From Escherichia coli (GTDB taxonomy: Bacteria > Pseudomonadota > Gammaproteobacteria > Enterobacterales > Enterobacteriaceae): a DNA stretch of 64,000 bases. Position 1 is the stretch's first letter, and every line of letters begins with the position of its first letter. This document shows, piece by piece, positions 28,667 to 49,380 of the stretch. A program made the position numbers and the translations under genes. The notes beneath the pieces are model-generated. The model saw only the letters and a program-made list of their open reading frames with translations. It was not told where the DNA came from and searched no databases. The DNA lies in NCBI RefSeq assembly GCF_003019035.1, contig NZ_CP027448.1; one strand, given 5' to 3'.

Positions 28667-29314
28667 TTTCAGCCCCCATCATCTTTTGAGTTTCGGGAGC
28701 CGCGGTTTTGACGTTTTGCGGGGACCTGCCTTTTGTTCCCTCCGGTATTCACCATCACCTTTTTGAGAACCTTCGCCGCAAGGGGCATCACTGCCACGGA
28801 CGGAAACGACTGTCCGGGGGCAGACCGCAAAAGTTTTTGCCTGCTTTTGAGCAAAAAGTTTTGCGGGATGTACATTTCACCCCTGGACTGGCGGAGACGG
28901 TTGTGGCTGTATCAGCCCCCGGCGACAGGGGCTTAAACAGGTGAATGGCACCGGACAGAACAACGGGCAGGGACCCGCCGCAACGACGTGAAGCGCGGTT
29001 TGCGAAACGGCGTTGCCCCTTACATCCCGGCGGCCTTTTGCCGGGATGCCGGGAGCGCAGGCCACGGCGCGACAGAGGCGGCGCGACCGGAACGGTCGCT
29101 GCAAGCCCGGGGTTTTCACGCATCGGACCGTAGCGACAGCCCGAAACCGCGCCAGCGGGTTCGGCGGAGACTGGCAGGTGCGCCAGCAGCTGCCTGTCGG
29201 AGTCGGGCCTGACGACCGGATGCCGCCAAGCAGCCGGGAGCCGAAGGTGCGCCCGGCAGATAGGACAACACTGCAGTAGTCAGAATCAGAGCAGAAAGAA
29301 AAAGAGAATAATCA
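28667..29314 (+). repeat. Structured ~0.63-kb leading-region repeat, copy 1 (Frpo/ssi-like candidate single-strand promoter)
   Basis: Near-identical to 34087-34720 and 37421-38033; contains hairpins (28825-28866; CATCCCGGC...GCCGGGATG); ends about 20 bp upstream of the DUF905 start. Confidence 0.75.
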
Positions 29315-30003: not shown

Positions 30004-30723
30004 TCACGCTGCCTCCCGGAGTTTGTTCGGCACCATCCACCGCTCCATCTCACGGACAGCGTGACCGGCCTCTCTTGCTGCAAGACTGGCTTCCGCAATA
30101 ACCTGCCAGAACGGCATATCCTGCCACTGCCAGCGTTCCATTCCGGCCAGTGACGGAAAACGCTCGCCCCACTGCCAGAACAGGGTTTCCAGGTCATGCT
30201 CTGCCACCCGGTCACTCCAGCGTGCATGCCAGCTTCCGACTGTTTCCGGCGAATGGAATGCCAGTTCGATTTCAGCCTGAGCGACCAGCGCCTGGTACGC
30301 ACGGGCTTTCTGCTCTGCCTCCCTCGCCTGCTGGCGGCTGTACTTCTGCATGACCAGCGCGGATTTATGGCGACTGCGTTCCCTGACACGAAACCGCACC
30401 GACGGGAACAAGCGCTCTGCTGCATCACCGGGAAGGGGAAGGAGGCAGACCTCGCCCTGTGTTTCAATCAGCACATCGATGGCATACAGCCACTGAAGAC
30501 GGTTGCCGTGCAGTTCTTCTGCGGTCAGGGACGGCATGAAAAATCGCAGGTCAGACAGCGATATCCTGCGGCTTCCGTTCAGACAGCGGAAAAACGCCCC
30601 CGCATACGGATATTCAGCCAGCGTGTTACCCTGATGGCGGCGTTTTTCGGTCTCCGCCACCGCCCGCCATACGGCCTGTTGCTCTGTGCTGAGGGGAACC
30701 AGTGCCTGTGAACGTGCGCTCAT
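30004..30723 (-). CDS. psiA: PsiA (plasmid SOS inhibition protein A)
   Basis: 239 aa; 4-nt overlap with psiB; synteny ssb..psiB-psiA. Confidence 0.88.
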
Positions 30724-31208: not shown

Positions 31209-33167
31209 TCAGGCGGCATCAGCCAGGTTATCGGTGCGTTCAGTGGCATCCGTCTGTGGGCGTGGTGCACACATCCAGCCAGGCACCCAGCGGTTGTCTT
31301 TCATATGGTGCTCTGCATGTTCAGCCGCATCGCCTTTCTTCATCTTCTCCGCGTCCCGTGCAGCACCGGACAGTCCTGCCTCATTCAGGGCTGCGATAAT
31401 CTGCGGCTTTTTCAGGTGTCCGAAGAAGTTTGCTTTTGTCGGCTGCCACCAGTCGCGCATGTGAAAGCCGATGGCGCTTTCCAGCGAATCCAGCGGACTG
31501 CGTGACGTGTGACCATACTCACGGGTCTGAACACCGTGGATGCTGCATGCAGTGCAGAAACTGAGCAGGGACAACAGAACCTCCTGGCTGAGTGACAGGA
31601 ACGTCGTCATATCCCGTGCCCATCCCTCCGGTAACAGGGCTGCAAGACGGGCTTTTTCTGCCATCATCGCCATGAATGCGGCACCGTCCTTCCCCGATGG
31701 CGCATCGCTGGTCAGCGCATAATGCTCACATTCCAGACGAATTTTTGCGGGATTGCTGTACGCCCCGCTACCAAACACATTCAGGCAGAGCGTCCATGCC
31801 AGCAGTGCCAGGGATTTGTCCGGCTGTTGCATAAGCGCCGCCTGGACTGCCAGCGTGCGCTCTGAGGACATTTTCGTCAGCAGTGGCAGACTGATTTCCT
31901 CCACGGAGGCTTTCTCCTGCACCTGTTCCGTGTGGTCAGCGTCGTCAGCCACATCATCCTCACTGCGTAACTGCACACCACGCTGGACACATACGTTTCC
32001 ATAACGCCAGGACACCACCACGCCACTTCCGGCACGCATCTCCGGCGTCCACGCCCTGACCTTCGCCATGCAGTCAATCAGCTTCATTTCTGCTTCCAGC
32101 AGGTCGGATTCCTCACACTGGTTTTCCAGCGCATCGTAACGTGCCATCAGTTCGTTCAGGCGTTCTTCTTCTGCCTCCGTCAGCACCGCTTCCGGCTCCG
32201 GCAGACTGCGGTATGTTCCGGCATCCTCACGGCACTCACCAACGGCCTCCATGCGTCCGGCACACCATCCCCAGCCCTCGGCTTCCCGAAGGTGTTCAGC
32301 AACAGCCTGGAGTTTTTCCAGCAGGGCAGCATCGAGCGCAACACAGTCCACATAGCCACCCTCGTCGTCGCTGAACAAATCGGTGCGCAGTTCATCTGGC
32401 GAGAAGGCATCAGCCCCCACAAAGCGGAATTTAGTGTTCCCCACCACCGCCACTTCACTTTCGGTCACCAGACGACGAATGGTCTGTACTCCCGGTTTTC
32501 CGCCCCATCCCGACTGACAGGCAGCTTCAAACACCTGCACCTGACGCGCGGTGTCGTTCTCCAGCGCCAGCGCCTGACAGTGCTCTGTGGTGATGCGGTC
32601 TTCTGCCAGCGCATCGAGGATGACAGGCGCAAGGTCTGCCAGTTTCAGCATTCGCTGAACGTGGCGGGGTGAATAGCCCAGCAAATCACCGATTTGTGCA
32701 GGCGTTTTGCCTTCCTGCGCCATTGCACGGAATCCGGCAATCTGTTCGGCAGGGTGCATATCCCGACGATGACCGTTTTCAGTCATTGATGCGGCAGTCG
32801 CCAGTTCCTGCGGAATAACCTTCACGCGGACAGGCCAGTCAGCAGGAAGGATGTTGCGCTCTGCCAGCATGTTGAGTGCTGCCAGTCGGCGACCGCCTGC
32901 GGCGACACCGTAACGGTCACCTGGCAGGGCATGAACAACCAGATTCTGCAGCAGGCCGACGCCCTTAATGGACTCTGCCAGTTCGCTGACGGACTCCGCA
33001 GAATACGGCACCGTGCGCACATTCAGCGGTGACTTAATCAGCGAGGCCAGCGGCACGCTCACTTCAGCCGTCTCCGCCAGCAGGGCCGACAGGACTGTTT
33101 CCTGCGTTTTTGCAGGTTTACGGCTGGATTTACGCTCCGTTTTTACCTTAGACTCTGTAACTGACAT
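31209..33167 (-). CDS. ParB/Srx-domain (ParB-like nuclease) leading-region protein, 652 aa
   Basis: N-terminal ParB-like motif ...LVVHALPGDRYGVAAGGRRLAAL...; start set at ATG 33167 with AAGGAG RBS (ORF track begins 33263). Confidence 0.78.
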   Translation of the reverse strand: MSVTESKVKTERKSSRKPAKTQETVLSALLAETAEVSVPLASLIKSPLNVRTVPYSAESVSELAESIKGVGLLQNLVVHALPGDRYGVAAGGRRLAALNMLAERNILPADWPVRVKVIPQELATAASMTENGHRRDMHPAEQIAGFRAMAQEGKTPAQIGDLLGYSPRHVQRMLKLADLAPVILDALAEDRITTEHCQALALENDTARQVQVFEAACQSGWGGKPGVQTIRRLVTESEVAVVGNTKFRFVGADAFSPDELRTDLFSDDEGGYVDCVALDAALLEKLQAVAEHLREAEGWGWCAGRMEAVGECREDAGTYRSLPEPEAVLTEAEEERLNELMARYDALENQCEESDLLEAEMKLIDCMAKVRAWTPEMRAGSGVVVSWRYGNVCVQRGVQLRSEDDVADDADHTEQVQEKASVEEISLPLLTKMSSERTLAVQAALMQQPDKSLALLAWTLCLNVFGSGAYSNPAKIRLECEHYALTSDAPSGKDGAAFMAMMAEKARLAALLPEGWARDMTTFLSLSQEVLLSLLSFCTACSIHGVQTREYGHTSRSPLDSLESAIGFHMRDWWQPTKANFFGHLKKPQIIAALNEAGLSGAARDAEKMKKGDAAEHAEHHMKDNRWVPGWMCAPRPQTDATERTDNLADAA

Positions 33168-33231
33168 ATATTTCTCCTTTGACCGGGGTGGTTGTATGTC
33201 TGCCGGACGTGATCCCCGTCCGGCACCTCTC

Positions 33232-34720
<1,489 letters not shown>

Positions 34721-34929
34721 GAAAAAGAAGAACAGTAGCAGTAGCAGTAGCAGGAACAACAACATCAGTAACAGACAAATGACAGGCATGAAGAAACAGA
34801 AGCCCCCATCAGAACGTCCGCGTAATGAAAGGGGCGGCGCGTGAGCGCGGCCCCTTTCAGCGCCACCGGCGCGCGGTCTTTTCCCGGCGCGGGCAGACGG
34901 GCATTTATCCTCCCGCCTGCCCGGCGTCT

Positions 34930-35493
34930 TCAGGCACGCAGACGAATAATCATCGTCGGGACATCGGTATAAGCAAACGTGCCGCGCGGCAGCTCCTCGC
35001 GGACGTCAGAAAACGGTAACAGCTTCTCCTGCTGGCGTGGTCCGTTGAGACAGACGGCGACCAGCACGCCACCCGGACGCAACAGGGAAAAGGCCCGCAG
35101 GATATGCCGGATATCCTGCCCGTGGCTGAACGGCGGATTCATGATAACCCGGCTGTAATACTGCGCCGGCTGCCATTCCATGAAGTCGCCACACTGAACC
35201 CTGACACCGTTAAAATTTTCCCGCAGATACCGGACCAGCCCGCTGTTGATTTCCACCGCATCACACATGGCCCCCGGCGCGGTATCCCGAATCGCCCGCA
35301 GTATGGCCCCGGTGCCGGCAGAGGGTTCCAGAATGTGATCACGGTTGCTGATCTCCGCCAGCATCACCAGGCGATCACAGACCGGGGCAGGAGTCACAAA
35401 AAGCTGAGATTCAGCCCGGATTTCAGCAACCGGCGCGGCGTTATCCAGCCTTGCGCGCATCAGCCGGATACGTTCTCTTAACTGACTGTGCAT
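34930..35493 (-). CDS. Small SAM-dependent DNA methyltransferase-like protein (NPPF motif), orphan
   Basis: 187 aa with motif I-like EPSAGTGAIL and motif IV NPPF; no adjacent restriction enzyme. Confidence 0.7.
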   Translation of the reverse strand: MHSQLRERIRLMRARLDNAAPVAEIRAESQLFVTPAPVCDRLVMLAEISNRDHILEPSAGTGAILRAIRDTAPGAMCDAVEINSGLVRYLRENFNGVRVQCGDFMEWQPAQYYSRVIMNPPFSHGQDIRHILRAFSLLRPGGVLVAVCLNGPRQQEKLLPFSDVREELPRGTFAYTDVPTMIIRLRA

Positions 35494-35540
35494 GTCATTA
35501 TCTCCGTCATCCCCCGGGGATTTTCCCGGGGGGATATACC

Positions 35541-36902
35541 TTATTTCTGTGGAATTTCCGTGATTTTCATGTCGGTGATATACACATTCACCAGGCGGAA
35601 ATTATTGTCCATTGTGCGGCGGTAGCGGTATGCCCCGTGGTCTTCTGCTTCTGCCACACTGCGCACGGCCTTACAGTCCCGGGGCAGGGCGGCCCACTGT
35701 GCCTTTGTCATTTCCCGGAAACCTTCCCCCGGATAGTTGACTACCGGCGGACGCTTCGCGGCCTGACTGGCGACGGCAGCCTCTTCTGCCGATGGTGCTT
35801 TGTAGTCCGTGATGCGATCGGGCGTCACTTTCATCGTGCCGCTGTACCCGAGAAAACTGTAATTTGGCGTTGTGACTGAACTCACCACCCCGTTGCTTTT
35901 GTTCACACGGATGATGGTCAGCCACTCGCCCCGGCTGAAAACCTGTCCGCCCGGCTCAAAATCCTGTGTCCGGGTAACCACGCCGCCGCTTTCGTCCAGC
36001 ATGGCACGCTCATAGATCAGGCGGTTCTGATAGTGGTTAACCCAGCGTTGCTGACGCTGGATCTGCCGTTCATGACAGCGGATCGCAATTTCGCGGGCCT
36101 GCTCCGTGGTGATGATGTCATCATCCAGGGCCGACCATAACGATCGACTTCCTTCATACTGGCTTTTTTCTGCCGGGCGCGGATACGTATCCAGCGGGAA
36201 ACAGGCGCTAATATGGTCATGACTGCTGATGAGTTTTGCCATATTCAGATCCAGCGATTCAGCCCGCCACATCGTCAGATATTTCTGCGACTGTGCGATG
36301 GTCTTTTCAGCCTTGCGCAAATCAGCTTCGATTTTTTTGATACGACGCCAGCGAACGTCCGGACGTTCTTTATACTTCGCGTGAAGCAGTGCCGACCGCG
36401 CGCGTTCTTCCCAGTATTCCGCACGTTCAAAGAGCATCACGGCACGTTTCATGCCGTTTTCAATACGCTGCGCATCACGACGGGCGCGGCGTTCGCTGTG
36501 ATGCCCCACAAGAATGGGCTGACCGGGCGGGATCATCGCGGCCAGTCTTTCCACTTCATCAAGTGCCTGTGCGGATTCACTGGCCCGCTTTCCGCTGTAT
36601 CCGGTAAACCGCTCCGCCCGTGCTTCCTGACGTTCAGCGAGCGTGCTGTCTTCATCCTCAATCTCTCCGGCAAGTGAGAGGAGCACGTCTTCCCGGCCCG
36701 GTGTCCAGGCTGGCGCGACAAACAGCGCCTGTTTGGGTGCCCAGCGAAAACCGGCATCATGCACTTTTTTATACGTCTCCGGGTCGAGGCGTGACGCGGC
36801 ATACAGGCGCAGTTTGTTGTCATCCGGTGAGTAGGTCGCGCGGTACATCTGCACAGGGCTGGCGGCTTCCGGGGCGGTCATGGTGATGGCTGCTAATGTC
36901 AT
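35541..36902 (-). CDS. Conserved leading-region protein (DUF3560-like, 453 aa)
   Basis: Long ORF, charged/helical middle region; family name from memory, unverified. Confidence 0.6.
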   Translation of the reverse strand: MTLAAITMTAPEAASPVQMYRATYSPDDNKLRLYAASRLDPETYKKVHDAGFRWAPKQALFVAPAWTPGREDVLLSLAGEIEDEDSTLAERQEARAERFTGYSGKRASESAQALDEVERLAAMIPPGQPILVGHHSERRARRDAQRIENGMKRAVMLFERAEYWEERARSALLHAKYKERPDVRWRRIKKIEADLRKAEKTIAQSQKYLTMWRAESLDLNMAKLISSHDHISACFPLDTYPRPAEKSQYEGSRSLWSALDDDIITTEQAREIAIRCHERQIQRQQRWVNHYQNRLIYERAMLDESGGVVTRTQDFEPGGQVFSRGEWLTIIRVNKSNGVVSSVTTPNYSFLGYSGTMKVTPDRITDYKAPSAEEAAVASQAAKRPPVVNYPGEGFREMTKAQWAALPRDCKAVRSVAEAEDHGAYRYRRTMDNNFRLVNVYITDMKITEIPQK

Positions 36903-36953
36903 AAAATGTTCTCCTTCCGTCTGTTGCCGCCCCTCGCGGGGCGGCTCACCTCA

Positions 36954-37184
36954 TCAGTTAAAAGCGCGTTTCAGTTCGAGTGTGCGGAGCACCTGCCCGA
37001 AGGCCGTGTTTTTCATGGCGGGGATGTGTACACCACGCCCCCGGTGAAAACTCCGGGCTATGTGTCGCCCGAAGGCTTTCAGCACGGGGTCAATTTCCGG
37101 CGCGGGGATGTCTTCGCGTCTGAAACGGGGATGACGGCGGGGCTTTACAGCCGCTGCGGAAGGTGAAACAATACTTACCGTCAT
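36954..37184 (-). CDS. Small basic hypothetical protein (76 aa)
   Basis: AAGGAG RBS 8 nt upstream of ATG 37184; first ORF downstream of repeat copy 3. Confidence 0.45.
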   Translation of the reverse strand: MTVSIVSPSAAAVKPRRHPRFRREDIPAPEIDPVLKAFGRHIARSFHRGRGVHIPAMKNTAFGQVLRTLELKRAFN

Positions 37185-37420
37185 AAATGAAACTCCTTAT
37201 GACTGTTGAATGGAACCGCAGAAACTGCTCGAACAGTTTTTGCGGTGTGGATTAAGCAGGTCCTCCCCGGCCTGCTTTTTTCATATCTGCGTCTGACGTT
37301 CTCCGGTGTTTTCCTCCTTCTGTTCCTGCGTTCTCATTACCTGCCAGCCGGATGACTGACAGAACAAATAAATGCGTATTGCCGGAGCCTGAAATAAATC
37401 CTGATTTTTAAAGAACATCA

Positions 37421-38033
37421 CCCGTTGAGTTTCGGGAGCCGCGGTTTTGACGTTTCGCGGGAACCTGCTGCTGTATTCCCTGTGGTATGAACTTCACCCG
37501 TTTGAGAACCTTCGCCGCAAGGGGCATCACTGCCACGGCCTGACGCACCTGTCCTGGGCAGAACGCAAAATTTTTTACCGGGTTTGGGGTAAAAAATTTT
37601 GTGGGCTGTTCATTTACCCTGGACAGTCAGTGCGGCAGGTTGTGGCTGTATCAGCCCCCGGCGACAGGGACTCATACGGGTGTGTGGCACCCGGCAGGCA
37701 ATGAGCAGGGACCCGCCGCAACGACGGAGAGCGCGTGCGCGAAACGGCGTTGCCCCTTACATCCCGGCGGCCTTTTGCCGGGATGCCAGGAGCGCAGGCC
37801 ACGGCGCGACAGAGGCGGCGCGACCGGAACGGTCGCTGCAAGCCAGGGGGTTTCACGCATCGGACCGTAGCGGCAGCCCGAAACCGCGCCAGCGGGTTCG
37901 GCGGAGACTGGCAGGTGCGCCAGCAGCTGCCTGTCGGAGTCGGGCCTGACGACCGGATGCCGCCAGGCAGCCGGGAGCCGAAGGTGCGCCCGGCAGACAG
38001 AACAACACTGCAGTAGTCAGAATCAGAGCAGCA
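37421..38033 (+). repeat. Structured leading-region repeat, copy 3 (Frpo/ssi-like), diverged 5' part
   Basis: 3' two-thirds nearly identical to copies 1 and 2; 5' part diverged but hairpin retained with compensatory changes (37563-37603). Confidence 0.75.
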
Positions 38034-38224
38034 GATAAAGGAACAACAACAACATCAGGAACAGTTCCACAACATAAGAAAGAAACACTCCTGAGTCAGA
38101 CACATCACAGACGGGAAGGGTAACGGGCGACGCGCCAGCGTGGCCCGCTTCCCTTCCGGCAGGCGTCAGCCTGCCAGGGGTTTTCGCGCGGGCTGACAGG
38201 CGGCCTCCACCGCCTGCCCCTGTA

Positions 38225-38416
38225 TCACCTGTTTCTGCTGCCCTGTAAGATGTAGTGACCGCCCAGGAAAACCGCCTGCTGATTCGCCACAAAATCGCAG
38301 ATTTCATCAACAATCTGCGCGGTGGTGAGCGGTTTCTGCCCCATTTCACGACGCCGCGCATTAATCACGGCCCTGTAATTACGCAGAATTTCGCGGGTTT
38401 CTGTGCTGATATTCAT
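38225..38416 (-). CDS. Small hypothetical protein (63 aa)
   Basis: ATGA overlap with upstream gene (38413-38416) suggests translational coupling. Confidence 0.45.
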   Translation of the reverse strand: MNISTETREILRNYRAVINARRREMGQKPLTTAQIVDEICDFVANQQAVFLGGHYILQGSRNR

Positions 38417-38835
38417 GACATCGTCTCCCCGTCCAGCGCCTGTAACACAACGTCCATTGCTTCGCGTTCCTCCCTGACGAATGCGTCACCGTCGCCCCCG
38501 TTCTCACTCCCGACGGCATACAGGCGCTTCATTTCACTGCCTGCCAGCGCCATCACTTTTTCCAGCATCACCGCCGGGACTGTCACATGACGGCTGGCGC
38601 GCTTTTCTTCCATCAGTTCACGAACAACGTCGTGAACAACGCTGACATCCGCACCATGCTCAAAGGCATCGTCCAGCCGCTGCATGACGGTTTCCAGCTC
38701 ATCGTCTGCCAGACTCCAGTCCTGAGCTATGTGGCGCACATCCCCACGGGTCAGCACCACGGCAAAAACGCATTCACTGTCCGGCACGTCTGTATCCAGC
38801 ACTTCGCGGATAATTTCTTTAACAGTACAGTACAT
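38413..38835 (-). CDS. Acidic leading-region protein (DUF1380-like), paralog of 40542-40976
   Basis: 140 aa starting MYCTVKEII...; shares MY.T....RE.... N-terminus and acidic character with the 144-aa ORF. Confidence 0.6.
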   Translation of the reverse strand: MYCTVKEIIREVLDTDVPDSECVFAVVLTRGDVRHIAQDWSLADDELETVMQRLDDAFEHGADVSVVHDVVRELMEEKRASRHVTVPAVMLEKVMALAGSEMKRLYAVGSENGGDGDAFVREEREAMDVVLQALDGETMS

Positions 38836-38881
38836 GTTCTCGTCTCCTTTACAGGGGCGGCATTGCCGCCCCGTCCGTTAA

Positions 38882-39307
38882 TCAGTCCAGTGCCGCGTAA
38901 ATCGCGTTACATTCGGGGTGAAATTCGATGTGGCTCCACAACTGCGCATCGCGCATCCTGTACAGGTGAGTCAGTCCTGCATCACCGCTGTCGTGGTACA
39001 GCCACAACTGACGGTTAATCACAAGGGAAGTCACAATGATGCCTGCGGCATCGGCGCTGACCGTACGGTCAAACCAGTTTTCACCGTTCACCATGTGGAA
39101 ACGGTCGCCATCCGGCATCATGTAACCGCCACCGTCCGGCAGGCGGATGAAGTGCCAGAATCCGCCTTCATATTCCGGCATCATTTTTTTCGCCAGCGCG
39201 TACACAGATGCCTCGGCATACAGAAAATCATTGCCAAACAGATACAGCAGAAAGGAGAGACGGTCGCATTCTTCAACATTCAGAGTGACAGGTTTCGCAT
39301 ACTGCAT
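38882..39307 (-). CDS. ardB: ArdB/KlcA-family anti-restriction protein (141 aa)
   Basis: ...[21 protein letters not shown]...[23 protein letters not shown]... matches remembered ArdB/KlcA pattern; start at ATG 39307 with GGAGG RBS (track ORF begins 39487). Confidence 0.78.
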
Positions 39308-39719
39308 GGGATTTCCTCCGTTGTTCACATATTCCGCGACACCGGGCGGTGCCGTGCCTCCATAAAAGCCGGGCGATAAGGCGGGGATGCACAGGGCGCA
39401 AGGGAAGCCGCAGCCTGACGCACACGGCTGACGGGAGTTGGAGGGGGAGACCGCGAAATCTGAGCGGGTGAACGACCGGAAAATCACGGCAGACGGGAAG
39501 GAGGGACCGGGTGACCGCAGCGTTCATTTTACCCTTGCATCCCCGCCAGCCCGGCTAAGATGGAGGCACGGCACAGCCCGCACACGACACGGTGGCCACA
39601 TAACTGAAAACCCACAAGGCCATGCCTGCATGGCCGGGTAAAGCGGAGCCGGCGGCGACTTCCTTTGTGCTCTGTCCGGGGACCGGCAGAAAAAAAAGCG
39701 GGGATTTTCCCCGCCATCA

Positions 39720-40496
39720 TCAGCCCCTGATTTTTGCCAGGGCATCCGCCATGCTGCGGATTTCGGCCCGGGCTTCCCGGACAACTTCCCGCAGAACACC
39801 ACGGTCAAACCTCTGGCGGGGCGGTTCATCCGGTATACGCAGCACATCGCAGGCCAGCCCACTGGACAGGATATGTTCAATACAATCGCTGACCAGATAC
39901 ATTTCCACCGCCGAAAAACGTGCGCCCCGGTTCAGGATGGCATCGAGCACCACGGGCAGGTTTTCGTCGTCCTCATCGAGCCAGCAGGGGTGATCGCTTT
40001 CCTTCACGACCAGGCGAAAGCGGCGCGTCTGGCGGGTCAGTAACGTCTGACCAGTGGTGGTCAGCGCCGCCCGGATACGCCGCGTATCTTCTGCCACCCG
40101 GCAACTGACACTGCGTACCGCATCGCGCACCGCCGCAAGTACAGCCCTGATTTCGTCTTCGGTCAGCCATTCACCGGCATACGGAAAAGACACCTGCGTT
40201 CCGTCTGCCGGAAGTACCGGCAGCGACTGCCACTGACTGCCGGACAGTACAAGTTCCTCCCCGGTTCCGGTCAGTTTGTGAATGGCGGAGGCCAGGAGCG
40301 GCGGCAGTACGCCGCCGTGACGGTTTATAAGTAACGTCGCCAGCTGGGGCGCATCCAGCCGCACGTAAATGCTGATCCAACCCGGATAGTTCGGGTTTCG
40401 CTGGTCAACATCAGTCTCTTCCGGCCAGCCCTGCGCCAGCAGCAGGTCGCGGGCGTGACGACAAATCAGTGCATTCAGCGTTGTGTTTTCGTTCAT
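39720..40496 (-). CDS. Hypothetical leading-region protein (258 aa), function unknown
   Basis: Uninterrupted ORF in operon context; no family recognised. Confidence 0.55.
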
Positions 40497-40541
40497 GATT
40501 AATCGTTCTCCCTGTATCGCCGCCCGGAGGCGGCGATAACA

Positions 40542-40976
40542 TCAGTCGTTTTCGTGTGTGTTGTTTTTCAGCAGGCTGCGGGTCTGATTAACCACCGCCT
40601 GACGGCGGGTGACGCATTCCGGGACGGCGAGGCCGTTATCACGGGCGGCCCATTCACGCTTCCACAGTGCCTGTTCAGCGGTCTGAATCAGGGACGCCAG
40701 CAGTTCAGCAGGGACGGTCACCTGGCGGTTTTCACTCACGTTGCTGATAATCTCCATCGCCGCACAGGAAGAAATACCGGACTCAGTCCGCTGGTCTTCC
40801 GGGATGTCCTCCAGCCGCGCCAGGACGGTCCTGATTTCATGATCGGACAGGGAAATATCCATTCCGTCAGCGAGGGCCTGAGTTTCTTCCGGGGACCAGA
40901 TAACCAGCATCAGCGGCGTGTCTCCCGGATACTGCGCTGCCAGCTCCCGGCACAGCGTTTCGCATGTTCCGTACAT
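40542..40976 (-). CDS. Acidic leading-region protein (DUF1380-like), paralog of 38413-38835
   Basis: 144 aa starting MYGTCETLCRELA... Confidence 0.6.
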   Translation of the reverse strand: MYGTCETLCRELAAQYPGDTPLMLVIWSPEETQALADGMDISLSDHEIRTVLARLEDIPEDQRTESGISSCAAMEIISNVSENRQVTVPAELLASLIQTAEQALWKREWAARDNGLAVPECVTRRQAVVNQTRSLLKNNTHEND

Positions 40977-40989
40977 TCTCGTCTCCTTC

Positions 40990-41211
40990 TCAATCTTTGA
41001 AGCAGGAATCCAGTTCCAGAATTTCGGTATACGCCTCCATAAACAGGCGATTGGCGCGATACAGCGTCTGGCGTGTCAGGCGTTCAACAAGCACATCGGA
41101 ATCAAAGCGACAGCGATGCTCCATATCGTTCAGCCTGGCCCGAAGGTCACACATGGTGTTGGCCACCTCCGCCACGTCGGCGCGAAGTTTTTCGTGTCCG
41201 GCATAGTTCAT
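40990..41211 (-). CDS. Small hypothetical protein (73 aa)
   Basis: Directly abuts the upstream methyltransferase gene (41212). Confidence 0.45.
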   Translation of the reverse strand: MNYAGHEKLRADVAEVANTMCDLRARLNDMEHRCRFDSDVLVERLTRQTLYRANRLFMEAYTEILELDSCFKD

Positions 41212-41895
41212 TTACGCAGCCTCCGGTTCAAACCAGTTATCATTCGCGGCCCCCTGCTGCATGGCCCGTTGCACGGCGGCCATTCGTTGCTGTCCGGCAC
41301 GGTGATACTGTTCAAGCAGCTCGATACCGATATACCGGCGTCCGGACTGAAGGGCGACCACGCAGGTTGAGCCGCTGCCTGCAAACGGGTCCAGCACAAT
41401 CGCGTTCGGATGTGTGAAGCTCTCAATCAGTGGTTGCAGGCTGGTAACGGGCTTTTCCGTCGGGTGATGGCGGTTGCCTGAATATTTCCAGCCCAGCACG
41501 TCCGGCAGCAGGTTTTGTGGCAGACGTGGACGGCCTTTTGCCAGGATGTAGGCGCATTCGTGGCGATAGCCCACATATGCGGCCTTCGATGTGTAGTTTT
41601 TGGTGAAGACCAGGTGCTCGACCACACTGAATCCCGCATTTTTCCAGGCGGCCATAAAGCGATCGACGCGGTTCCAGCCATAGAGGCTCACCATCAGCGC
41701 GTCTTTTTTCAGCACACGGTACATTTCATTACAGGCCGGTTGCAGCCATTCATCGGTTTTATCACCCGCGATGGTACGTCCCTGACGGTCACGAAAACCG
41801 ACGAGGTACGGCGGGTCAGTCAGCATGAAATCAATGGCGTTATCAGGGATACGGGCCATAACATCGATGCAGTTACCGAGGACAAAACGGGACAT
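41212..41895 (-). CDS. DNA methyltransferase (N6-adenine/N4-cytosine family, DPPY motif), orphan
   Basis: 227 aa with DPPY (motif IV) preceding FAGSGST (motif I); no cognate nuclease nearby. Confidence 0.85.
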   Translation of the reverse strand: MSRFVLGNCIDVMARIPDNAIDFMLTDPPYLVGFRDRQGRTIAGDKTDEWLQPACNEMYRVLKKDALMVSLYGWNRVDRFMAAWKNAGFSVVEHLVFTKNYTSKAAYVGYRHECAYILAKGRPRLPQNLLPDVLGWKYSGNRHHPTEKPVTSLQPLIESFTHPNAIVLDPFAGSGSTCVVALQSGRRYIGIELLEQYHRAGQQRMAAVQRAMQQGAANDNWFEPEAA

Positions 41896-42278: not shown

Positions 42279-43205
42279 TCATCCGCCATAATGCGCCACA
42301 TTGTCGACTATCCACGCAGGTCCGGTGACCTCCGGCAGCTCATCGTCATCTGTCGGGGAAGACCATTCCTGTTCCCCCCACAGAACATCAACAAGCTCTC
42401 CACGCTCATATCGCTGCCAGCCACAGAAATTGCAGCCCTGTTCGGCATACCAGTGCTCCAGCGTGCAGCCGAAACGGCGGCTTAATTCTGCAACAACGTC
42501 GCTTTCCGGCTGACACCACGGCGTGTCAAAATCCACCTGAATGAAGTTTTCTCCCTGACGGCCGATATTCAGGTCATACCCACAAGGCCACTTCACGCCA
42601 TACCGTTCCGTATACCAGTGATATGCAGAAGGAACACCGTTCAGAACACCACCGTTAAAGCCGTTCACTTCAACATCCAGGCGGGTCGGCAGAACCGTCA
42701 GCAGGTCAAACGGCATGGTTTTTTCCGGCACTACGTTGTCACACAGACGGTTCCACCACACCGATACATCCTCGTTACTCCAGAAGCCACACCAGTCACC
42801 TCTTTTTGCGGTGAAAAGTGCGGTGATGGTATCCCTGACATCGTCCGGTAATCCTTCCCAGCGACGCTGTCCAGTACCGCTCTGCAGCCAGAGTTCATGC
42901 AGCATCAGGCAGTTTTGCTCATCCAGCAGTACACCGTCCTGCAGATATGTCAGCCAGCGGGTGAACGCGATATTCTCCGGCGATACAACGCCACGCCCGG
43001 CAGCCGTCAGTCCGGGGCATGGTTCAAACCGCACATCTTCAGTGGTCTGCAGAAGTCCGGCACTTCCGGCCAGAAACAGCTGAATACCTTCATTTGTGGC
43101 GCGGCGATAAAGCGGTGTGACTGCGCCGCTGGCCAGTCGTTTAATCTCAGCGATCTGTGCCGGTTCACCAGAAAAATACATACGATTCGAGCACCAGTTT
43201 GGCAT
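42279..43205 (-). CDS. Conserved leading-region protein with MPNWCxN N-terminus (DUF1281/Api92-like as recalled), 308 aa
   Basis: ATG 43205 preceded by GAGGAGA; track ORF starts 43250. Family name from memory. Confidence 0.65.
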   Translation of the reverse strand: MPNWCSNRMYFSGEPAQIAEIKRLASGAVTPLYRRATNEGIQLFLAGSAGLLQTTEDVRFEPCPGLTAAGRGVVSPENIAFTRWLTYLQDGVLLDEQNCLMLHELWLQSGTGQRRWEGLPDDVRDTITALFTAKRGDWCGFWSNEDVSVWWNRLCDNVVPEKTMPFDLLTVLPTRLDVEVNGFNGGVLNGVPSAYHWYTERYGVKWPCGYDLNIGRQGENFIQVDFDTPWCQPESDVVAELSRRFGCTLEHWYAEQGCNFCGWQRYERGELVDVLWGEQEWSSPTDDDELPEVTGPAWIVDNVAHYGG

Positions 43206-43559
43206 GGGAATTCTCCTCTCACATGCGGCCTCCATCAGGCCGTGCCGCACCTGTAACCGGGCGACCGCATACGAATGCAGGTGCGGCCCCGAAGCCGCAG
43301 CGCGTGGAGGAGGAACGACGAAACGTGACCGGGTGAGGAGGCCGGCGACAGCGACACACTTGCATCGGATGCAGCCCAGTTAACGTGCCGGCACGGCCTG
43401 GGTAACCAGGTATTTTGTCCACAGAACCGTGCACAAAATGCTGTGGATAAGCTGGACACAGCAGCCCACAGCAGGCATACAGCCACACCCTCAGAGAATT
43501 GAACGTTTTTTAGCCGCAACAATGACATTTGACTGTATGTGGATTCAGTTATTAGAATG

Positions 43560-43598: not shown

Positions 43599-43847
43599 AT
43601 GATCCGCATTGAAATTCTTTTCGACCGCCAGAGCACAAAAAACCTCAAATCAGGCACACTTCAGGCGCTACAGAATGAAATCGAACAACGACTGAAACCA
43701 CACTACCCGGAAATCTGGCTGCGTATAGACCAGGGCAGCGCCCCGTCTGTATCTGTCACAGGAGCCCGCAACGACAAGGATAAAGAACGTATCCTGTCTC
43801 TGCTGGAAGAAATCTGGCAGGACGACAGCTGGCTGCCTGCAGCATGA
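43599..43847 (+). CDS. impC: DinI-like small protein (ImpC-like)
   Basis: 82 aa MIRIEILFDRQ...EEIWQDDSWLPAA; start chosen downstream of the LexA box. Confidence 0.75.
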   Translation: MIRIEILFDRQSTKNLKSGTLQALQNEIEQRLKPHYPEIWLRIDQGSAPSVSVTGARNDKDKERILSLLEEIWQDDSWLPAA

Positions 43848-44281
43848 GTACCGTTTATCACCGTCCGGCTGACCCTTCAGGCGATGACAGTTACGTGCGA
43901 CCGTTGTTTGCCGATCGTTGCCAGGCCGGTTTTCCTTCGCCTGCCACTGATTATGCTGAGCAGGAACTGGATCTGAACAGCTATTGCATCAGCAGACCTG
44001 CAGCCACCTTCTTTCTGCGCGCCAGCGGTGAATCGATGAACCAGGCTGACGTGCAGAATGGTGATCTGCTGGTAGTGGACAGGGCCGAAAAACCACAACA
44101 CGGGGACATCGTTATCGCTGAGATCGACGGTGAGTTCACCGTCAAACGACTGCTGTTGCGCCCACGCCCGGCACTGGAGCCGGTTTCAGACAGCCCGGAG
44201 TTCCGCACACTGTATCCGGAAAACATCTGTATTTTTGGTGTTGTCACTCACGTGATACACAGGACGCGGGAGTTACGCTGA
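43844..44281 (+). CDS. impA: UmuD/ImpA-like S24 peptidase subunit of error-prone polymerase
   Basis: 145 aa with Ser-Lys dyad context (ASGESM ... FTVKRL). Confidence 0.88.
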   Translation: MSTVYHRPADPSGDDSYVRPLFADRCQAGFPSPATDYAEQELDLNSYCISRPAATFFLRASGESMNQADVQNGDLLVVDRAEKPQHGDIVIAEIDGEFTVKRLLLRPRPALEPVSDSPEFRTLYPENICIFGVVTHVIHRTRELR

Positions 44282-44453: not shown

Positions 44454-46682
44454 TTATCTGACTACAATATTGATATCGTTTTCCGCAACAATCAGCATCA
44501 CGGCAGGTAAACCCTCCACACGCATTTTCTGGTGTAATTTTTTGATTAAATTATCATCTTCATTACTGGCTTTTGCGGAAAAGCCTTGTGGATGGGAGTG
44601 CCATTCGCCAACATAATCGACAACACGAGCGGTCAACTGGTGAACCCGTTCTAATGCTTCTTGTTGTCCCGCTTCTCCCCGGACAAAGGAGGCTGGAGAG
44701 GATTTACTGTCGATAGGTTCAGGGAGCACGTCAACCAGAATAATCGTTTTGTTCTTAAAATCTGTTATGCCAACAATTGCACCTCCTGTTTCATTAGGCA
44801 GTGCCTGTAAGCGGGTGTGCTGCAATTTTTGCGCTAAGCCCTGGTCATATTTAACAACCCATTCGCCAGAAATTATAGATACCACGGAATAGAGTTCAAT
44901 TTCATGTGCATCCATCGCGCCTGATATTTCATCAGATACCCAGATACACAATCGAGCATTTCCTTTGAGTGCAGTCTGGCGAAGTTGGCGTGAGAGGATA
45001 CCGGCATGAACATGAATACATTCACTGGACATACGTACAGAAATATCCCGACATCCACCACCGACCCAACGATCGCCATAATTGTGCTGTAGGTGAGTAC
45101 TTCCCCACTCACTGCTCAAAATTGCCCGATAGTATTGCCCCTCAATTGCATCAATTCGGCATTGTCTGTCTACATCCTCCATTAACATCACGCTAGACTG
45201 ACCCGATGGAGTCAGAAACAGGCTAACTATTCTGGGTATATCATCTTTTAACACTAGAGTCCTCGGCACCTCAAAGGTGGTACTGACATCCACAACTAAG
45301 TCTGCCTCATTCATTGCCTTAGCAATATCATCATCGTCATCAAGAATACTTTTATGGATCGCCTGAGGGAGGGGCTCATGCGGATAAATAGATTTGGCAA
45401 TATGCTGAATAATATGGGGTTTTGAGACTCCAATATGACAATCAAACCCAATATGGCGAGACAAATTATGTGGAAGAAGCCGATCTGGATCAATAAAAGT
45501 CCATGTCCCCCACCCCATTCGAATCCAAATATCAGCCAATGTACTACCAAGAGCGCCAACTCCAGCTAAAATACCTCGAAAAGCTGCACTCTCTGAATCA
45601 ACAGCAGATATGTCTCTCGCATGTGTGGCCTTCATAGCCGAACGTATTTCAACTGGTAAAAGCGGTAATTGTCGCCACTTGGTACTAATTGATCCGCCAA
45701 GAAGCCGTACGCGATGCTGTACTCCTCGCTCATTTTTTGGCGCCAGCATATCTAGTGCAGTGGCAAGTTCACCGAGTGAACTTTGCACAACATAGCCCAT
45801 CACATCCGTACGTTCTGTTTCTCCGTTTCTTAGACGGGGGATCCAAAGCAGGATAAGTAAGCCTTCTCCTTTACCAGACGTTGGGCGGATACCATCACTT
45901 GGTATTGCTTCATAAACAGCGTCAGTTAGTGGTTTTAGGAGCTCACTTCCCCATTCATTAAGTTGTTCTTCTAATTTTCCCAGATTATCCGGGTATGTAG
46001 CCACCGTAGAAACATCGACAGGAGGAACAGCAATAGTTAATAAGCGAAATGGCTTAACGCTTGAGGTATCTTGTTCTGGTACAGCCCTTAAAATAATCGG
46101 TCGCCCCTCACTGACCATCTGGAGACTGAGCTTATTGTCAGTCGCGTGATGATAATCGGGGTAATTGGCTGGCAAAATGAGCTGATAGGGACTCAAATAA
46201 AAAAGTTGCTCAAGTGGCTGATCTTCTCGATGTAGATGCAGTTCGGCCGATTCTCTAAGCCACCAAAAAATGCGCTCAAGGAATCTCTCGGGGGTCCAAC
46301 TGCGCTCAACTGCGCTCCAGGAGGCCTCATATAGGCAAAGAATTCGTGGTGAGCCAGGTTCTCCAGCATGCTGGTGAGAAAGAACAGGGAAATCTTTCCG
46401 CAATGCATGAACCAAGATAGGTATGCTTGATTTGGGATTGACCTCAATAGCCAATCGTTCTTTACGACGAATACGGGCTTGATTACCAGAAGCCACAGTC
46501 CCATCAGCAGCATCAATGATTAGATATTCCGAGCGGTTATCATTTATTTCAGAAAATCGTAATTCTCTGACTGTGACGTAAGGATGATTCTCGCATGCTT
46601 TAAGCAGCGAAATCGTTTGTGGATAAAGGCTATCGCGCCCCGATGAATCGAGGCGCTCACCCAATTCGAAATATTCGATCAT
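44454..46682 (-). CDS. Multidomain E2-like / E1-like (ThiF) / JAB-JAMM peptidase fusion protein (742 aa)
   Basis: HQH..10 aa..C (E2-like), GILAGVGALGSTLADIW...IDPD (ThiF Rossmann), EWHSHPQGFSAKASNEDD (JAMM HxH..S..D) read directly from the translation; ATGA overlap with upstream MBL gene. Confidence 0.75.
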   Translation of the reverse strand: MIEYFELGERLDSSGRDSLYPQTISLLKACENHPYVTVRELRFSEINDNRSEYLIIDAADGTVASGNQARIRRKERLAIEVNPKSSIPILVHALRKDFPVLSHQHAGEPGSPRILCLYEASWSAVERSWTPERFLERIFWWLRESAELHLHREDQPLEQLFYLSPYQLILPANYPDYHHATDNKLSLQMVSEGRPIILRAVPEQDTSSVKPFRLLTIAVPPVDVSTVATYPDNLGKLEEQLNEWGSELLKPLTDAVYEAIPSDGIRPTSGKGEGLLILLWIPRLRNGETERTDVMGYVVQSSLGELATALDMLAPKNERGVQHRVRLLGGSISTKWRQLPLLPVEIRSAMKATHARDISAVDSESAAFRGILAGVGALGSTLADIWIRMGWGTWTFIDPDRLLPHNLSRHIGFDCHIGVSKPHIIQHIAKSIYPHEPLPQAIHKSILDDDDDIAKAMNEADLVVDVSTTFEVPRTLVLKDDIPRIVSLFLTPSGQSSVMLMEDVDRQCRIDAIEGQYYRAILSSEWGSTHLQHNYGDRWVGGGCRDISVRMSSECIHVHAGILSRQLRQTALKGNARLCIWVSDEISGAMDAHEIELYSVVSIISGEWVVKYDQGLAQKLQHTRLQALPNETGGAIVGITDFKNKTIILVDVLPEPIDSKSSPASFVRGEAGQQEALERVHQLTARVVDYVGEWHSHPQGFSAKASNEDDNLIKKLHQKMRVEGLPAVMLIVAENDINIVVR

Positions 46683-47866
46683 TGGTTTGATACACCTGCC
46701 CTAGGAGCGGCGGCCGTAGCAGCACTTACCGCAGCTGAAACAGCACCAACAATAGCGGGTATTAACTTCCCGTCTCCAGCCACTTCAAATTCAAGGAACG
46801 CTGTATCTTTAAGATCCCCCGTACAGCTAAACCAACCATCAACACTGTCCAGAATATCCTCATACTCACGCTTAGCCCGGATGCACGGTGGATCATAATC
46901 ATCATCAAGTATCTGATTGCTACTCGATACAATTGTTGCCCCGGAACGAGCCTGACCTAAAGCATTACGGGCCGCATCACAAACTTCAGCATTCTCCCCC
47001 CATTGTGACCAGCTATCATAGGAAAGTGAATGCCATGAACAATGATGCGGTGTGAGGAGAAGATCATATTCTAGTGCCTCAGCATTGCTTTTGTAACGAT
47101 CCCATAATCGCTCCCAGATGAGAACTTCTGCGTCTCCACCTAATAGAAAGTGCATAGGATTACGGGAATATGCAGAGGGCAGTATTTTCATGTTCATGAT
47201 GATACTGGATTCGTTTTTAGAAAGAGCTTCTTCCAAATATTCATCATCTTCATGTGGTGCGGGCGCCAGAAGCTGTGCGGAGAACACTTCTGAAATTTGC
47301 CCGTCAATTCTGGTGAATGTATCTCCAGCTTTGATAAGAATGGCACTCAGATCATCTGTTTTGCCATTAATATCTTCACCCATGATAAGGATTCGATTAC
47401 CGCTAGATGCATAACCATGTTCCCGCCAGTATTTTACTCGGCGCCGTGCTTCTGTATTAAATGCCTGAGCATCTTCGCAAAGTGTGTGACTTTTGGAACG
47501 ACGCCGAAAAATCAATGGTGATGACCACAATTCTCGAATAATGATACGCTTTTCTGAACGTTTCACATCGTCATCTGGATAATCTTCAGGACGGCCCAGC
47601 CAGAAATGTTTACGCAGGCCACCGCAATGATCCTGATCGGGATGACTGAGCATAAAAACATCAATAAAGGGACGATCTTTTTCATCATACTTCAATCTGC
47701 TACGTAATGCCGAGGCAACATCAGGTGTGTCATCATTGGGGTTATCAGCAGCAGAGCGAATATGTACATCAATCAGAATGGATGTGCCCCGGGTGTCGGC
47801 CAAACGTACCAGTGTCATATCACCGTTGCCGACTTGGAAAAAAGTAATTTTGGCTGCCATCGACAT
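46679..47866 (-). CDS. Metallo-beta-lactamase-fold protein (395 aa) with Ala/Gly-rich C-terminal tail
   Basis: MBL-like motifs ...LIDVH..., SHPDQDHCGG, ...TPHHCSWH...; C-terminus ...AIVGAVSAAVSAATAAAPRAGVSNQ. Confidence 0.75.
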   Translation of the reverse strand: MSMAAKITFFQVGNGDMTLVRLADTRGTSILIDVHIRSAADNPNDDTPDVASALRSRLKYDEKDRPFIDVFMLSHPDQDHCGGLRKHFWLGRPEDYPDDDVKRSEKRIIIRELWSSPLIFRRRSKSHTLCEDAQAFNTEARRRVKYWREHGYASSGNRILIMGEDINGKTDDLSAILIKAGDTFTRIDGQISEVFSAQLLAPAPHEDDEYLEEALSKNESSIIMNMKILPSAYSRNPMHFLLGGDAEVLIWERLWDRYKSNAEALEYDLLLTPHHCSWHSLSYDSWSQWGENAEVCDAARNALGQARSGATIVSSSNQILDDDYDPPCIRAKREYEDILDSVDGWFSCTGDLKDTAFLEFEVAGDGKLIPAIVGAVSAAVSAATAAAPRAGVSNQ

Positions 47867-47994
47867 CTCCTTTAGGGATACGAAAGATTGAGGTTAAGAG
47901 CATCTATTGCTAAGATACATCTAGTAATTATACTAGTCTAGTAATTAGACGTATATTTTGGACTTAAATTGTAAGTACAGGAAATTATTGATAA
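47867..47994. promoter_or_regulatory. Divergent promoter/operator region with tandem direct repeats (TCTAGTAATTA x2)
   Basis: AT-rich intergenic region between divergent MBL operon and WYL gene; repeats at about 47918-47950. Confidence 0.4.
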
Positions 47995-48849
47995 ATGAGT
48001 GATAAAATGGTGAGAACTGGTCATTGGAGCCAAGAAAGACGGCTTGAATTCATCGATTTTCGCCTACTGTGGGAAGGTCGGCTTAACCGTGCAGATCTCA
48101 CGACATTTTTCAGAATTTCAGTTCCGCAAGCCTCATTAGATTTGGCAAAATATCAAGAAGTTGCGCCAAACAACATGGTGTATGATCGAACTCAGAAGGC
48201 TTACATTACGACTCCTGATTTCAAACCTGTTTTTACAAGCTTTGACAGTAATCATTACCTGAATGAACTACTTGGGCGAGAAAATGAAATAGTGGATCCT
48301 GATGATAGTTTCATTGGGTGGGTACCCCCGGTAGCCAGCCTTCCTCTCCCTGCCAGGAAAGTACAACCTGAAATATTGATTGATTTAATTCGAGCCATGC
48401 AAAGAAAACAGGCTTTGGTTGTTGATTATCGCTCAATGACTAATGAACCAGCAATTCGTACGCTATACCCAACAGCATTTGCACATGATGGGCATCGGTG
48501 GCATGTTCGTGCTTATTGTTTTAAGTCTACAATGTTTAAAGATTTTGTTCTTGGTAGGTTTTTTAAAATCGTTGAATTTGTTTCCCCACCGACATCAATT
48601 CCACAAGATGTGGACTGGAATACATTTATTGACGTGGTAATAGGTCCAAACCCTAACTACGATATGAATAAACGGCTATCTATTGAACATGATTATCAAA
48701 TGGTAAAAGGAGAAGCAAAAATCCACATACGTAAAGCGCAATTATATTATCTTAATCGTCGATTAAATTTGGATGTAAATAGCGATGGTTCAATAGATGA
48801 CAAACAGCAGATCATCATGCTCAGAATAGACGAGTCTAAAACCTATTAA
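47995..48849 (+). CDS. HTH-WYL domain transcriptional regulator (BrxR/CapW-like)
   Basis: 284 aa; central ...HDGHRWHVRAYCFKSTMFKDFVLGRFFKI... fits the WYL pattern; N-terminal HTH-like region. Confidence 0.7.
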   Translation: MSDKMVRTGHWSQERRLEFIDFRLLWEGRLNRADLTTFFRISVPQASLDLAKYQEVAPNNMVYDRTQKAYITTPDFKPVFTSFDSNHYLNELLGRENEIVDPDDSFIGWVPPVASLPLPARKVQPEILIDLIRAMQRKQALVVDYRSMTNEPAIRTLYPTAFAHDGHRWHVRAYCFKSTMFKDFVLGRFFKIVEFVSPPTSIPQDVDWNTFIDVVIGPNPNYDMNKRLSIEHDYQMVKGEAKIHIRKAQLYYLNRRLNLDVNSDGSIDDKQQIIMLRIDESKTY

Positions 48850-48861
48850 GGGAATATTTAT

Positions 48862-49380
48862 ATGAATGCGAATGATGTTAACAAACGGAATAAAGAATGG
48901 ATGATTGTAATCATTATTATCTATCTTTTTATTTTGTTATGTATAGCAACATACGCTATTGGGGCTATGTCTCTAGGTTGGTTACCAACACCTTACGCAC
49001 CATTAAGGGTGCCACTGATGTGCGGAGCAATTGCCTATATAGGTGGTTGTTTATATTGTTTTCGTGCAATTTACCTCAATAAATGTATTAGAAAACAATG
49101 GGATCCAGATTGGCATGTATGGTATTTCATTCGCCCACTGACCAGTACAATCGCAGGTGCTATCAGTTATTTATTCCTTAAGGCGGGGTTGTTAGTTTTG
49201 GAGTCTAGTTCCAATGTAGGAGCTAGTGAAATGGGTTTCTTTGCGCTGGCATTTATTGCTGGTTTTAACGTCGATAAATTTGTCGCAAAAATCGAGGAAG
49301 TTGCAAAGGCTGTCTGGGGTATTGAAAAAACTCGAAGCTCGACTAATAATGATGCGAAAAATTCGGAAAAAAAAGAATAG
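48862..49380 (+). CDS. Small membrane protein (about 4 predicted TM helices, 172 aa)
   Basis: Hydrophobic segments throughout; 12 bp downstream of the WYL gene. Confidence 0.55.
   Translation: MNANDVNKRNKEWMIVIIIIYLFILLCIATYAIGAMSLGWLPTPYAPLRVPLMCGAIAYIGGCLYCFRAIYLNKCIRKQWDPDWHVWYFIRPLTSTIAGAISYLFLKAGLLVLESSSNVGASEMGFFALAFIAGFNVDKFVAKIEEVAKAVWGIEKTRSSTNNDAKNSEKKE

Follow-up and report, generated by a model that had tools for sequence, protein, structure and literature searches.

A second methyltransferase module beside an M.EcoGIX orthologue in an IncF leading region: an apparent split form of DUF3560 fusion proteins

Two methyltransferase genes of different class

The window analysed here is a stretch of 64,000 nucleotides (nt) from the Escherichia coli contig NZ_CP027448.1 (RefSeq assembly GCF_003019035.1), and the genes of interest are two methyltransferase genes in its IncF leading region, ydcA, which encodes a protein of 187 amino acids (aa), and a gene encoding a 227-aa protein. 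An original prediction, made from the sequence letters, had described the products as two unrelated orphan DNA methyltransferases with NPPF and DPPY/FAGSGST motifs, respectively, which might protect plasmid DNA against recipient restriction early after entry. Both open reading frames (ORFs) were found on the minus strand at the predicted positions and with these motifs and lengths (Table 1). The two proteins do fall into different classes, the 227-aa protein being a circularly permuted beta-class enzyme and YdcA a gamma-like one, and the catalytic motifs hold up on alignment, with those of the 227-aa protein in beta-class order and those of YdcA kept in 27 homologues. The leading-region location is borne out by the SLT, DUF932, PsiA and ssb genes nearby, all of them on the minus strand.

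Neither gene appears to be part of a complete restriction-modification system. As predicted, no nuclease family turned up near either methyltransferase gene: Pfam, NCBIfam and PADLOC, applied at 31-44.3 kb to ORFs of 150 aa or more and to annotated small ORFs, detected none, PHROG scans of the neighbours gave the same result, and so did Pfam for ORFs of 150 aa or more at 44.5-56 kb. YdcA does, however, have a conserved partner of another kind, the DUF3560 protein YdbA.

YdcA is a gamma-type methyltransferase core

YdcA (the name used in pS88) starts with an ATG codon and carries EPSAGTG, for SAM binding, at residues 56-62 and NPPF, for amino-methylation, at residues 119-122. The order of its motifs (X, I, II, III, IV, VIII), together with the NPPF catalytic loop, is that of the gamma class, and QLFxTP (QLFVTP), EPxAGTG, E81, D103-F104, NPPF and LPRGTFxYT (LPRGTFAYT) are invariant or nearly invariant in 27 homologues of 51-96% identity. 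The best sequence match in the PDB is the catalytic domain of M.TaqI (E = 1.2e-6; YdcA 33-135 versus M.TaqI 22-122), while the Pfam families MTS (29.3 bits) and Methyltransf_25 are matched barely above their cutoffs. An AlphaFold2 (AF2) model based on the 27 homologues, with a predicted local distance difference test score (pLDDT) of 87, is a plain Rossmann methyltransferase core, and its top Foldseek matches include M.TaqI, type I HsdM and PacII as well as TrmN, Dim1 and ErmE. PADLOC returned mad2 (1e-20) and several Type II MTase models and PHROG returned "DNA methyltransferase" families, a lean towards DNA that has to be read against the bias of both libraries to DNA enzymes. "DNA methyltransferase" is the likeliest label for YdcA on these grounds.

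The similarity to RNA-modifying enzymes leads to a different proposal, in which YdcA, together with YdbA, would be an RNA adenine methyltransferase that acts on host rRNA or tRNA shortly after entry and reprograms the recipient instead of protecting the DNA. The best NCBIfam matches of YdcA are Erm (35.1 bits, 8.9e-9) and KsgA (30.4 bits, 2.3e-7), with PrmC also found; KsgA, ErmC' and MJ0882 score like M.TaqI in a profile search of the PDB; TrmN, Dim1 and ErmE are among the structural matches; and the small size of YdcA resembles that of stand-alone RNA methyltransferase cores. However, all NCBIfam scores are far below the cutoffs (212 bits for Erm and 171 bits for KsgA), and YdcA falls outside both families, being 60-80 aa shorter, aligning with their N-terminal domain only and lacking their C-terminal RNA-binding domain. 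The nearest matches in the mobile-element libraries, which hold mostly DNA enzymes, are DNA methyltransferase families, relatives of YdcA are fused to a beta-clamp homologue or lie inside phage virion proteins, and the fused relatives reach Pfam N6_Mtase. We consider an RNA substrate unlikely, and a DNA-directed YdcA remains our preferred reading.

Only about 65 residues follow NPPF in YdcA, and the part of M.TaqI beyond approximately residue 165 has no counterpart, indicating that YdcA has no target-recognition domain. Neighbour scans with Pfam and PADLOC likewise found no HsdS-like protein next to YdcA. YdcA-type domains also recur within giant phage proteins, some of which are annotated as virion or internal proteins, and this distribution is consistent with a role in early counter-defence.

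YdbA and YdcA correspond to the halves of a fused protein

Directly upstream of ydcA, on the same strand but in a different reading frame, lies ydbA, which is itself preceded by a 76-aa ORF. Within the 47-nt junction of the two genes, a GC-rich inverted repeat (CCCCCCGGGAAAATCCCCGGGGG) comes after the stop codon of ydbA and before the ribosome-binding site of ydcA. With no T-run behind it, the repeat is not a typical terminator; an influence on the translation of ydcA or on mRNA stability is conceivable.

YdcA has 10,116 relatives among 1.8 billion cluster representatives that were searched exhaustively with HMMER. Many of those at 40-50% identity are proteins of 600-700 aa with a C-terminal YdcA-like domain and an N-terminal DUF3560 domain, and among the matches listed, the whole YdbA sequence precedes the methyltransferase domain in most distant representatives of at least 550 aa. 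The fused proteins align colinearly with the two window proteins, first with YdbA (approximately residues 20-452; 42-50% identity), then, after a Pro-rich linker, with YdcA (approximately residues 24-183; 40-50% identity). Since the helix that follows the linker aligns with the N-terminal helix of YdcA, the gene break lies within the linker. When a fused protein was used as tblastn query, both halves were colinear in at least 4974 of the best 5000 plasmid records, with a single coding sequence in plasmids of Acidovorax, Comamonas, Cupriavidus, Burkholderia, Pandoraea and Pseudomonas and two coding sequences (DUF3560, then methyltransferase) in Klebsiella, Raoultella, Serratia and Escherichia. 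Even next to a YdcA of 60% identity on a Klebsiella plasmid, ydbA is still directly upstream. The adjacent and co-oriented genes ydbA and ydcA thus show the layout of the DUF3560-methyltransferase family, of which they appear to be a split form, and YdcA is not a lone orphan, as it would supply catalysis in a conserved unit of two parts.

Metagenomic copies of the fused gene belong to elements that also encode RadC, a resolvase, an integrase, a primase or phage tail proteins. One metagenomic contig (SRR29078160_27512, positions 6930-9986) encodes a 1018-aa relative whose DUF3560 and methyltransferase domains are preceded by a Cys-rich segment and by a homologue of the beta sliding clamp (E = 1.6e-7 against solved clamps). 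Its gene lies in an element that resembles a phage and has a Pox_D5-type primase and tail genes. The fusion to a clamp and the embedding in giant phage proteins would point to DNA and to early counter-defence. In another metagenomic element, a gene for a 227-aa protein beside a fused homologue was considered as a relative of M.EcoGIX and rejected, the equal length being coincidental.

The AF2 model of YdbA (pLDDT 86) begins with a small alpha/beta domain. A long helical hairpin, whose GHHSE loop is conserved, forms the DUF3560 region and is followed by a further long helix and two small beta-rich C-terminal domains. Structural searches with this model returned no solved homologue and no nuclease fold. 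The UniProt-derived name "HD superfamily hydrolase" for DUF3560 was discarded, as it has neither a Pfam match nor structural support.

Both methyltransferase families and DUF3560 have been listed as enriched in leading regions (Samuel et al. 2024), and their co-occurrence there is therefore already known. In that study, family 8 (3753 members) is a K07319 methyltransferase of the M.EcoGIX type, family 26 (1957 members, median position 11) is annotated as K07317 "adenine-specific DNA methyltransferase" and also labelled Erm, and family 28 (1913 members, median position 12) is DUF3560, with some structural matches to "methyltransferase domain" proteins; family 26 matches the YdcA type. Family 14 of the same study, a "putative DNA methyltransferase" by its UniProt names, was tried as a match for the 187-aa protein and turned out to be DUF1380. 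In the papers found by a literature search, DUF3560 and ydbA/ydcA appear in gene lists only, with no function assigned and no treatment as one enzyme.

YdcA could instead act independently, as a sequence-specific orphan DNA methyltransferase to which DUF3560 is adjacent by chance; ydcA does have its own start codon, Shine-Dalgarno sequence and reading frame, and the KEGG-based annotation of family 26 is that of a DNA enzyme. The missing target-recognition domain and the confinement of the M.TaqI alignment to the catalytic domain speak against it, as do the prevalence of the fusion with full-length YdbA, the most frequent layout in those distant relatives listed that have at least 550 aa, the colinearity of the halves in the plasmid records, and the near-equal sizes and adjacent median positions of families 26 and 28. 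We hold such independence to be improbable and read the two genes as one split unit.

Frpo-type elements and predicted expression of the cassette

The window contains three copies, each of about 630 nt, of an Frpo-type element, with 82-97% identity to the two Frpo loci of F. Copies 2 and 3 are direct repeats 3314 nt apart that flank the 3.3-kb cassette made up of the 76-aa ORF, ydbA and ydcA. Copy 3, the one copy that was folded, gives -178.9 kcal/mol as single-stranded DNA (ssDNA) of the transferred strand (z = -8.1 versus shuffles) and forms a long hairpin. Transcription initiation from single-stranded Frpo-type elements has been described in transconjugants for the F and pESBL elements (PMC12672017). 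With such an element directly upstream of the operon, early expression of ydbA-ydcA from copy 3, a predicted promoter, is plausible.

Plasmids F and pESBL lack the entire cassette, and the published transcriptomes of early conjugation are therefore silent on ydbA-ydcA. Copy 3 is nearest to the ssb-proximal Frpo of F and copy 2 to its oriT-proximal Frpo; together with the cassette-less F and pESBL, this pattern suggests that the cassette was gained or lost by recombination between Frpo copies.

The absence from F and pESBL, which transfer well, also bears on whether the pair works at all. It could be what is left of a fusion gene that broke, lost its function and is in decay, with the M.EcoGIX homologue as the only methyltransferase that matters, and the split relative to the fused form would agree with that. 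So would the ydbA homologue upstream of the 60%-identical ydcA on the Klebsiella pneumoniae plasmid CP025212 (positions 5599-6786 of the segment), which appears C-terminally truncated, has only 395 aa, is absent from the gene table of the record and may be truncated or frameshifted. The split form of YdcA is, however, full length (187 aa), with motifs invariant or nearly so down to 51% identity across Enterobacterales; ydcA has a good ribosome-binding site; the pair occurs in thousands of plasmids; and it has retained its own copy of the ssDNA promoter. Decay is in our judgement as improbable as a chance neighbourhood of the two genes.

The 227-aa protein is an M.EcoGIX orthologue

The 227-aa protein (YfeA in F, YfbB in R64) carries DPPY at residues 27-30 and FAGSGST at residues 171-177, and motif IV thus precedes motif I, as in the circularly permuted beta class. 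It matches Pfam N6_N4_Mtase (E = 2.9e-39, residues 21-201) and PADLOC MTase_II (2e-137), is a full-length member of NCBIfam PRK13699 (485.8 bits, cutoff 244), and shares 208 of its 227 residues (92%) over the full length with M.EcoGIX of pESBL. In pESBL (NC_018659), the corresponding "DNA methylase" gene (54782-55465), whose locus was named M.EcoGIX by Yamaichi et al. 2015 (PMC4288162), lies in the same gene order. The window gene is located about 15 kb from oriT, on the same strand as psiB and ssb.

IncI1 and IncF plasmids carry M.EcoGIX in their leading regions, and the enzyme performs promiscuous, single-strand-specific N6-methyladenine (m6A) methylation in an SAY context (PMC7736820). Its deletion reduces transfer of pESBL to recipients with EcoRI or EcoGIII (PMC4288162), and it is induced, like its F homologue, in transconjugants early after entry (PMC12672017). 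Its expression in pESBL is driven by a single-strand promoter of "class 3", which was located by 5' rapid amplification of cDNA ends (PMC12672017). The intergenic region upstream of the run of genes that includes the window gene is nearly identical to its pESBL counterpart and has a moderate ssDNA fold (z = -2.8).

The gene is thus, judging by homology, an orthologue of M.EcoGIX and adds nothing new beyond the literature. For it, the idea of early pre-protection is correct by the experiments published on the 92%-identical M.EcoGIX, and earlier studies have established that orphan methyltransferases of the leading region protect plasmid DNA as it enters (Yamaichi 2015; Fomenkov 2020; Samuel 2024). 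The further suggestion that two classes imply different target specificities finds no support, since M.EcoGIX methylates almost regardless of sequence and a specificity domain is missing from YdcA.

Plasmid setting

The surroundings of both genes are the canonical leading region of an ordinary IncF plasmid of the resistance type (Table 1). TraJ and TraM lie to the left of it, with traM placed by synteny with pUR5239, and beyond the DUF1281 gene, DinI and UmuD follow on the opposite strand. All leading-region genes have the minus strand as coding strand, and the transferred plus strand is therefore their template. By megablast, the region at 31.0-44.5 kb is represented in at least 5000 plasmid records, at least 822 of them with more than 80% coverage.

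Besides the DUF1380 gene downstream of the M.EcoGIX homologue, a second one is present at 38413-38835; neither DUF1380 protein has a Pfam methyltransferase match.

Table 1. Features of the window, beginning with the two methyltransferase modules and their candidate promoters.
Feature	Position	Strand	Evidence or remark
YdcA, 187-aa gamma-type amino-methyltransferase core	34930-35493	-	motifs, Pfam, PDB match, AF2/Foldseek, PADLOC
ydbA-ydcA junction, 47 nt	35494-35540	-	GC-rich hairpin; GGAGA Shine-Dalgarno 8 nt before ATG
YdbA, 453-aa DUF3560 protein	35541-36902	-	Pfam DUF3560 5e-37
76-aa ORF, first gene of the cassette	36954-37184	-	no family over cutoff
Frpo-type element copy 1, oriT-proximal side	28677-29305	+	96% identical to copy 2; 97% to the oriT-proximal Frpo of F
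Frpo-type element copy 2, upstream of ssb	34100-34730	+	direct repeat with copy 3
Frpo-type (class 1) ssDNA promoter element copy 3, immediately before the cassette	37416-38048	+ (transferred strand)	88% identical to copy 2; 93.6% to the ssb-proximal Frpo of F
227-aa beta-class N6-adenine DNA methyltransferase, M.EcoGIX homologue	41212-41895	-	Pfam, NCBIfam, PADLOC, identity to pESBL
DUF1281 gene, leads the co-oriented run with the M.EcoGIX homologue	42279-43250	-	Pfam DUF1281 and DUF1281_C; gene order as in pESBL
Intergenic region upstream of the DUF1281/M.EcoGIX run, candidate class 3 ssDNA promoter site	43251-43538	+	near-identity to pESBL; ssDNA fold
73-aa ORF, downstream of the 227-aa gene	40990-41211	-	order as in pESBL and F
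DUF1380 gene, downstream of the 227-aa gene	40542-40976	-	order as in pESBL and F
258-aa YchA-like ORF, downstream of the 227-aa gene	39720-40496	-	order as in pESBL and F
Terminator-like hairpin after the YchA-like ORF	39697-39715
KlcA/ArdB-type antirestriction gene	38882-39487 (annotated start near 39307)	-	Pfam Antirestrict 1.5e-26
oriT	near 26.3 kb
SLT gene	26518-27120	-	Pfam/annotation
DUF932 gene	27531-28319	-
PsiA	30004-30723	-
psiB	adjoins PsiA	-
ParB-like gene	31209-33263	-
ssb	33527-34105	-
UmuD	43844-44281
742-aa E2-E1(ThiF)-JAB triple-fusion protein	44454-46682	-
395-aa ORF just upstream of the E2-E1-JAB gene	46679-47866	-
WYL-domain protein	47995-48849	+
Tyrosine recombinases (two)	49427-50746 and 51635-52687	-
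316-aa ORF between the tyrosine recombinases	50727-51677
umuC, 3' part resumes	52720-53841

Finally, a low-GC island of about 8 kb at 44454-53841 is apparently inserted into umuC. Its E2-E1-JAB triple fusion and two tyrosine recombinases give it the appearance of a recombinase-borne element that carries a defence module for ubiquitin-like conjugation.

A probable anti-defence block with two adenine-methyltransferase modules

The observations of the original prediction were confirmed; its interpretation is partly supported and largely already known. Taking both modules together, we think that the region is probably an IncF "establishment" anti-defence block, in which two adenine-methyltransferase modules are transcribed from the entering single strand. 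The M.EcoGIX homologue, as the first module, would place promiscuous m6A (SAY) on the incoming strand, so that recipient restriction enzymes cleave it less once it is double-stranded. The second module would be the three-gene cassette, driven by its own Frpo-type promoter. YdbA and YdcA may be the two subunits of one enzyme, in which YdbA would bind the substrate or direct the enzyme to it, the likeliest target being ssDNA or DNA under replication, while YdcA would methylate adenine at N6 with low sequence specificity. The module would then add a second, independent layer against restriction.

A more specific version of this proposal is considerably more tentative and, in our view, somewhat doubtful, though more credible than any of the three alternatives weighed above. 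It holds that YdbA-YdcA is a split two-subunit adenine methyltransferase that is expressed from Frpo within minutes of entry, with DUF3560 tethering the core to ssDNA or the replisome for processive protection of low specificity, and that it was missed because F and pESBL lost, or never had, the cassette.

Several points weigh against the two-module proposal. The methylome of a sequence type 131 strain lists one plasmid methyltransferase on pEC958 and no extra motif (PMC4659465), and pEC958 may or may not carry ydcA. The exact position of the class 3 promoter in the window is that of a candidate only. The lack of a sigma-70-like site on the coding strand at 34-43.3 kb speaks for expression from the single strand, but it comes from a crude consensus scan, which is a weak test. 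Searched against the PDB, a profile of the YdcA family scores similarly with M.TaqI, KsgA, Erm (ErmC'), MJ0882 (RsmC-like) and HemK (1e-7 to 1e-5), and because DNA, RNA and protein methyltransferases score alike, sequence leaves the substrate class of YdcA unsettled.

The second module matters because ydbA-ydcA occurs on at least 5000 plasmids sequenced from Enterobacterales, of which many are clinical, and is missing from F and pESBL, in which the biology of early entry was worked out. The residual value of the present analysis is thus the hypothesis that YdbA-YdcA constitutes a second protective methylation system that many clinical IncF plasmids carry. If the pair is another promiscuous DNA methyltransferase, it would help to explain why IncFII-type plasmids cross restriction barriers so easily. 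Seeing the pair as one split enzyme also implies that both genes should be expressed or deleted jointly, and the natural single-chain fusions are usable for biochemistry.

Comparison with known systems

The 227-aa protein shares the DPPY...FAGSGST layout of the PRK13699 enzymes M.EcoGIX (pESBL, IncI1), YfeA (F), YfbB (R64) and M.EcoMVIII (pEC958), and the neighbours of M.EcoGIX (DUF1281, small ORFs, DUF1380, YchA, KlcA) match those of the window gene. The window allele differs from M.EcoGIX by 19 substitutions and in nothing substantive, and its activity is taken from the homologue. The Frpo-type copies resemble the class 1 ssDNA promoters (Frpo/ssi) known from F and ColIb-P9, with sequence homology to the two Frpo loci of F, whereas the third copy, dedicated to the cassette, is a feature of the window plasmid and not of F.

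YdcA resembles M.TaqI and other gamma-class enzymes (HsdM, PacII, Eco57I-like) in its motif order (X-I-II-III-IV...VIII), its NPPF loop and its Rossmann core. Unlike M.TaqI and HsdM, it stops soon after the catalytic domain, with neither a target-recognition domain nor an HsdS-type partner, and is instead paired or fused with a DUF3560 protein. The YdcA-type domains within giant phage proteins (e.g. a 2715-aa ORF of Vibrio phage 1.211.A) invite comparison with the methyltransferase modules of large "polyvalent" or virion-injected proteins of phages and plasmids. Such modules would be delivered as packaged protein, whereas the window module would be a gene expressed from ssDNA; P1 DarB is presumably a further comparison for such virion-injected methyltransferase modules.

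The closest counterparts of the pair are the fused DUF3560-methyltransferase proteins, such as the 658-aa Ajs_4206 of Acidovorax sp. JS42 plasmid pAOVO01, which is colinear with YdbA plus YdcA. The fused gene also lies among ssb, DUF932 and RadC genes on a conjugative plasmid, in pAOVO01 near TraD and TrwC. The fused form is one polypeptide with a Pro-rich linker, whereas in the window the linker gives way to a stop codon, 47 nt of spacer and a fresh start codon.

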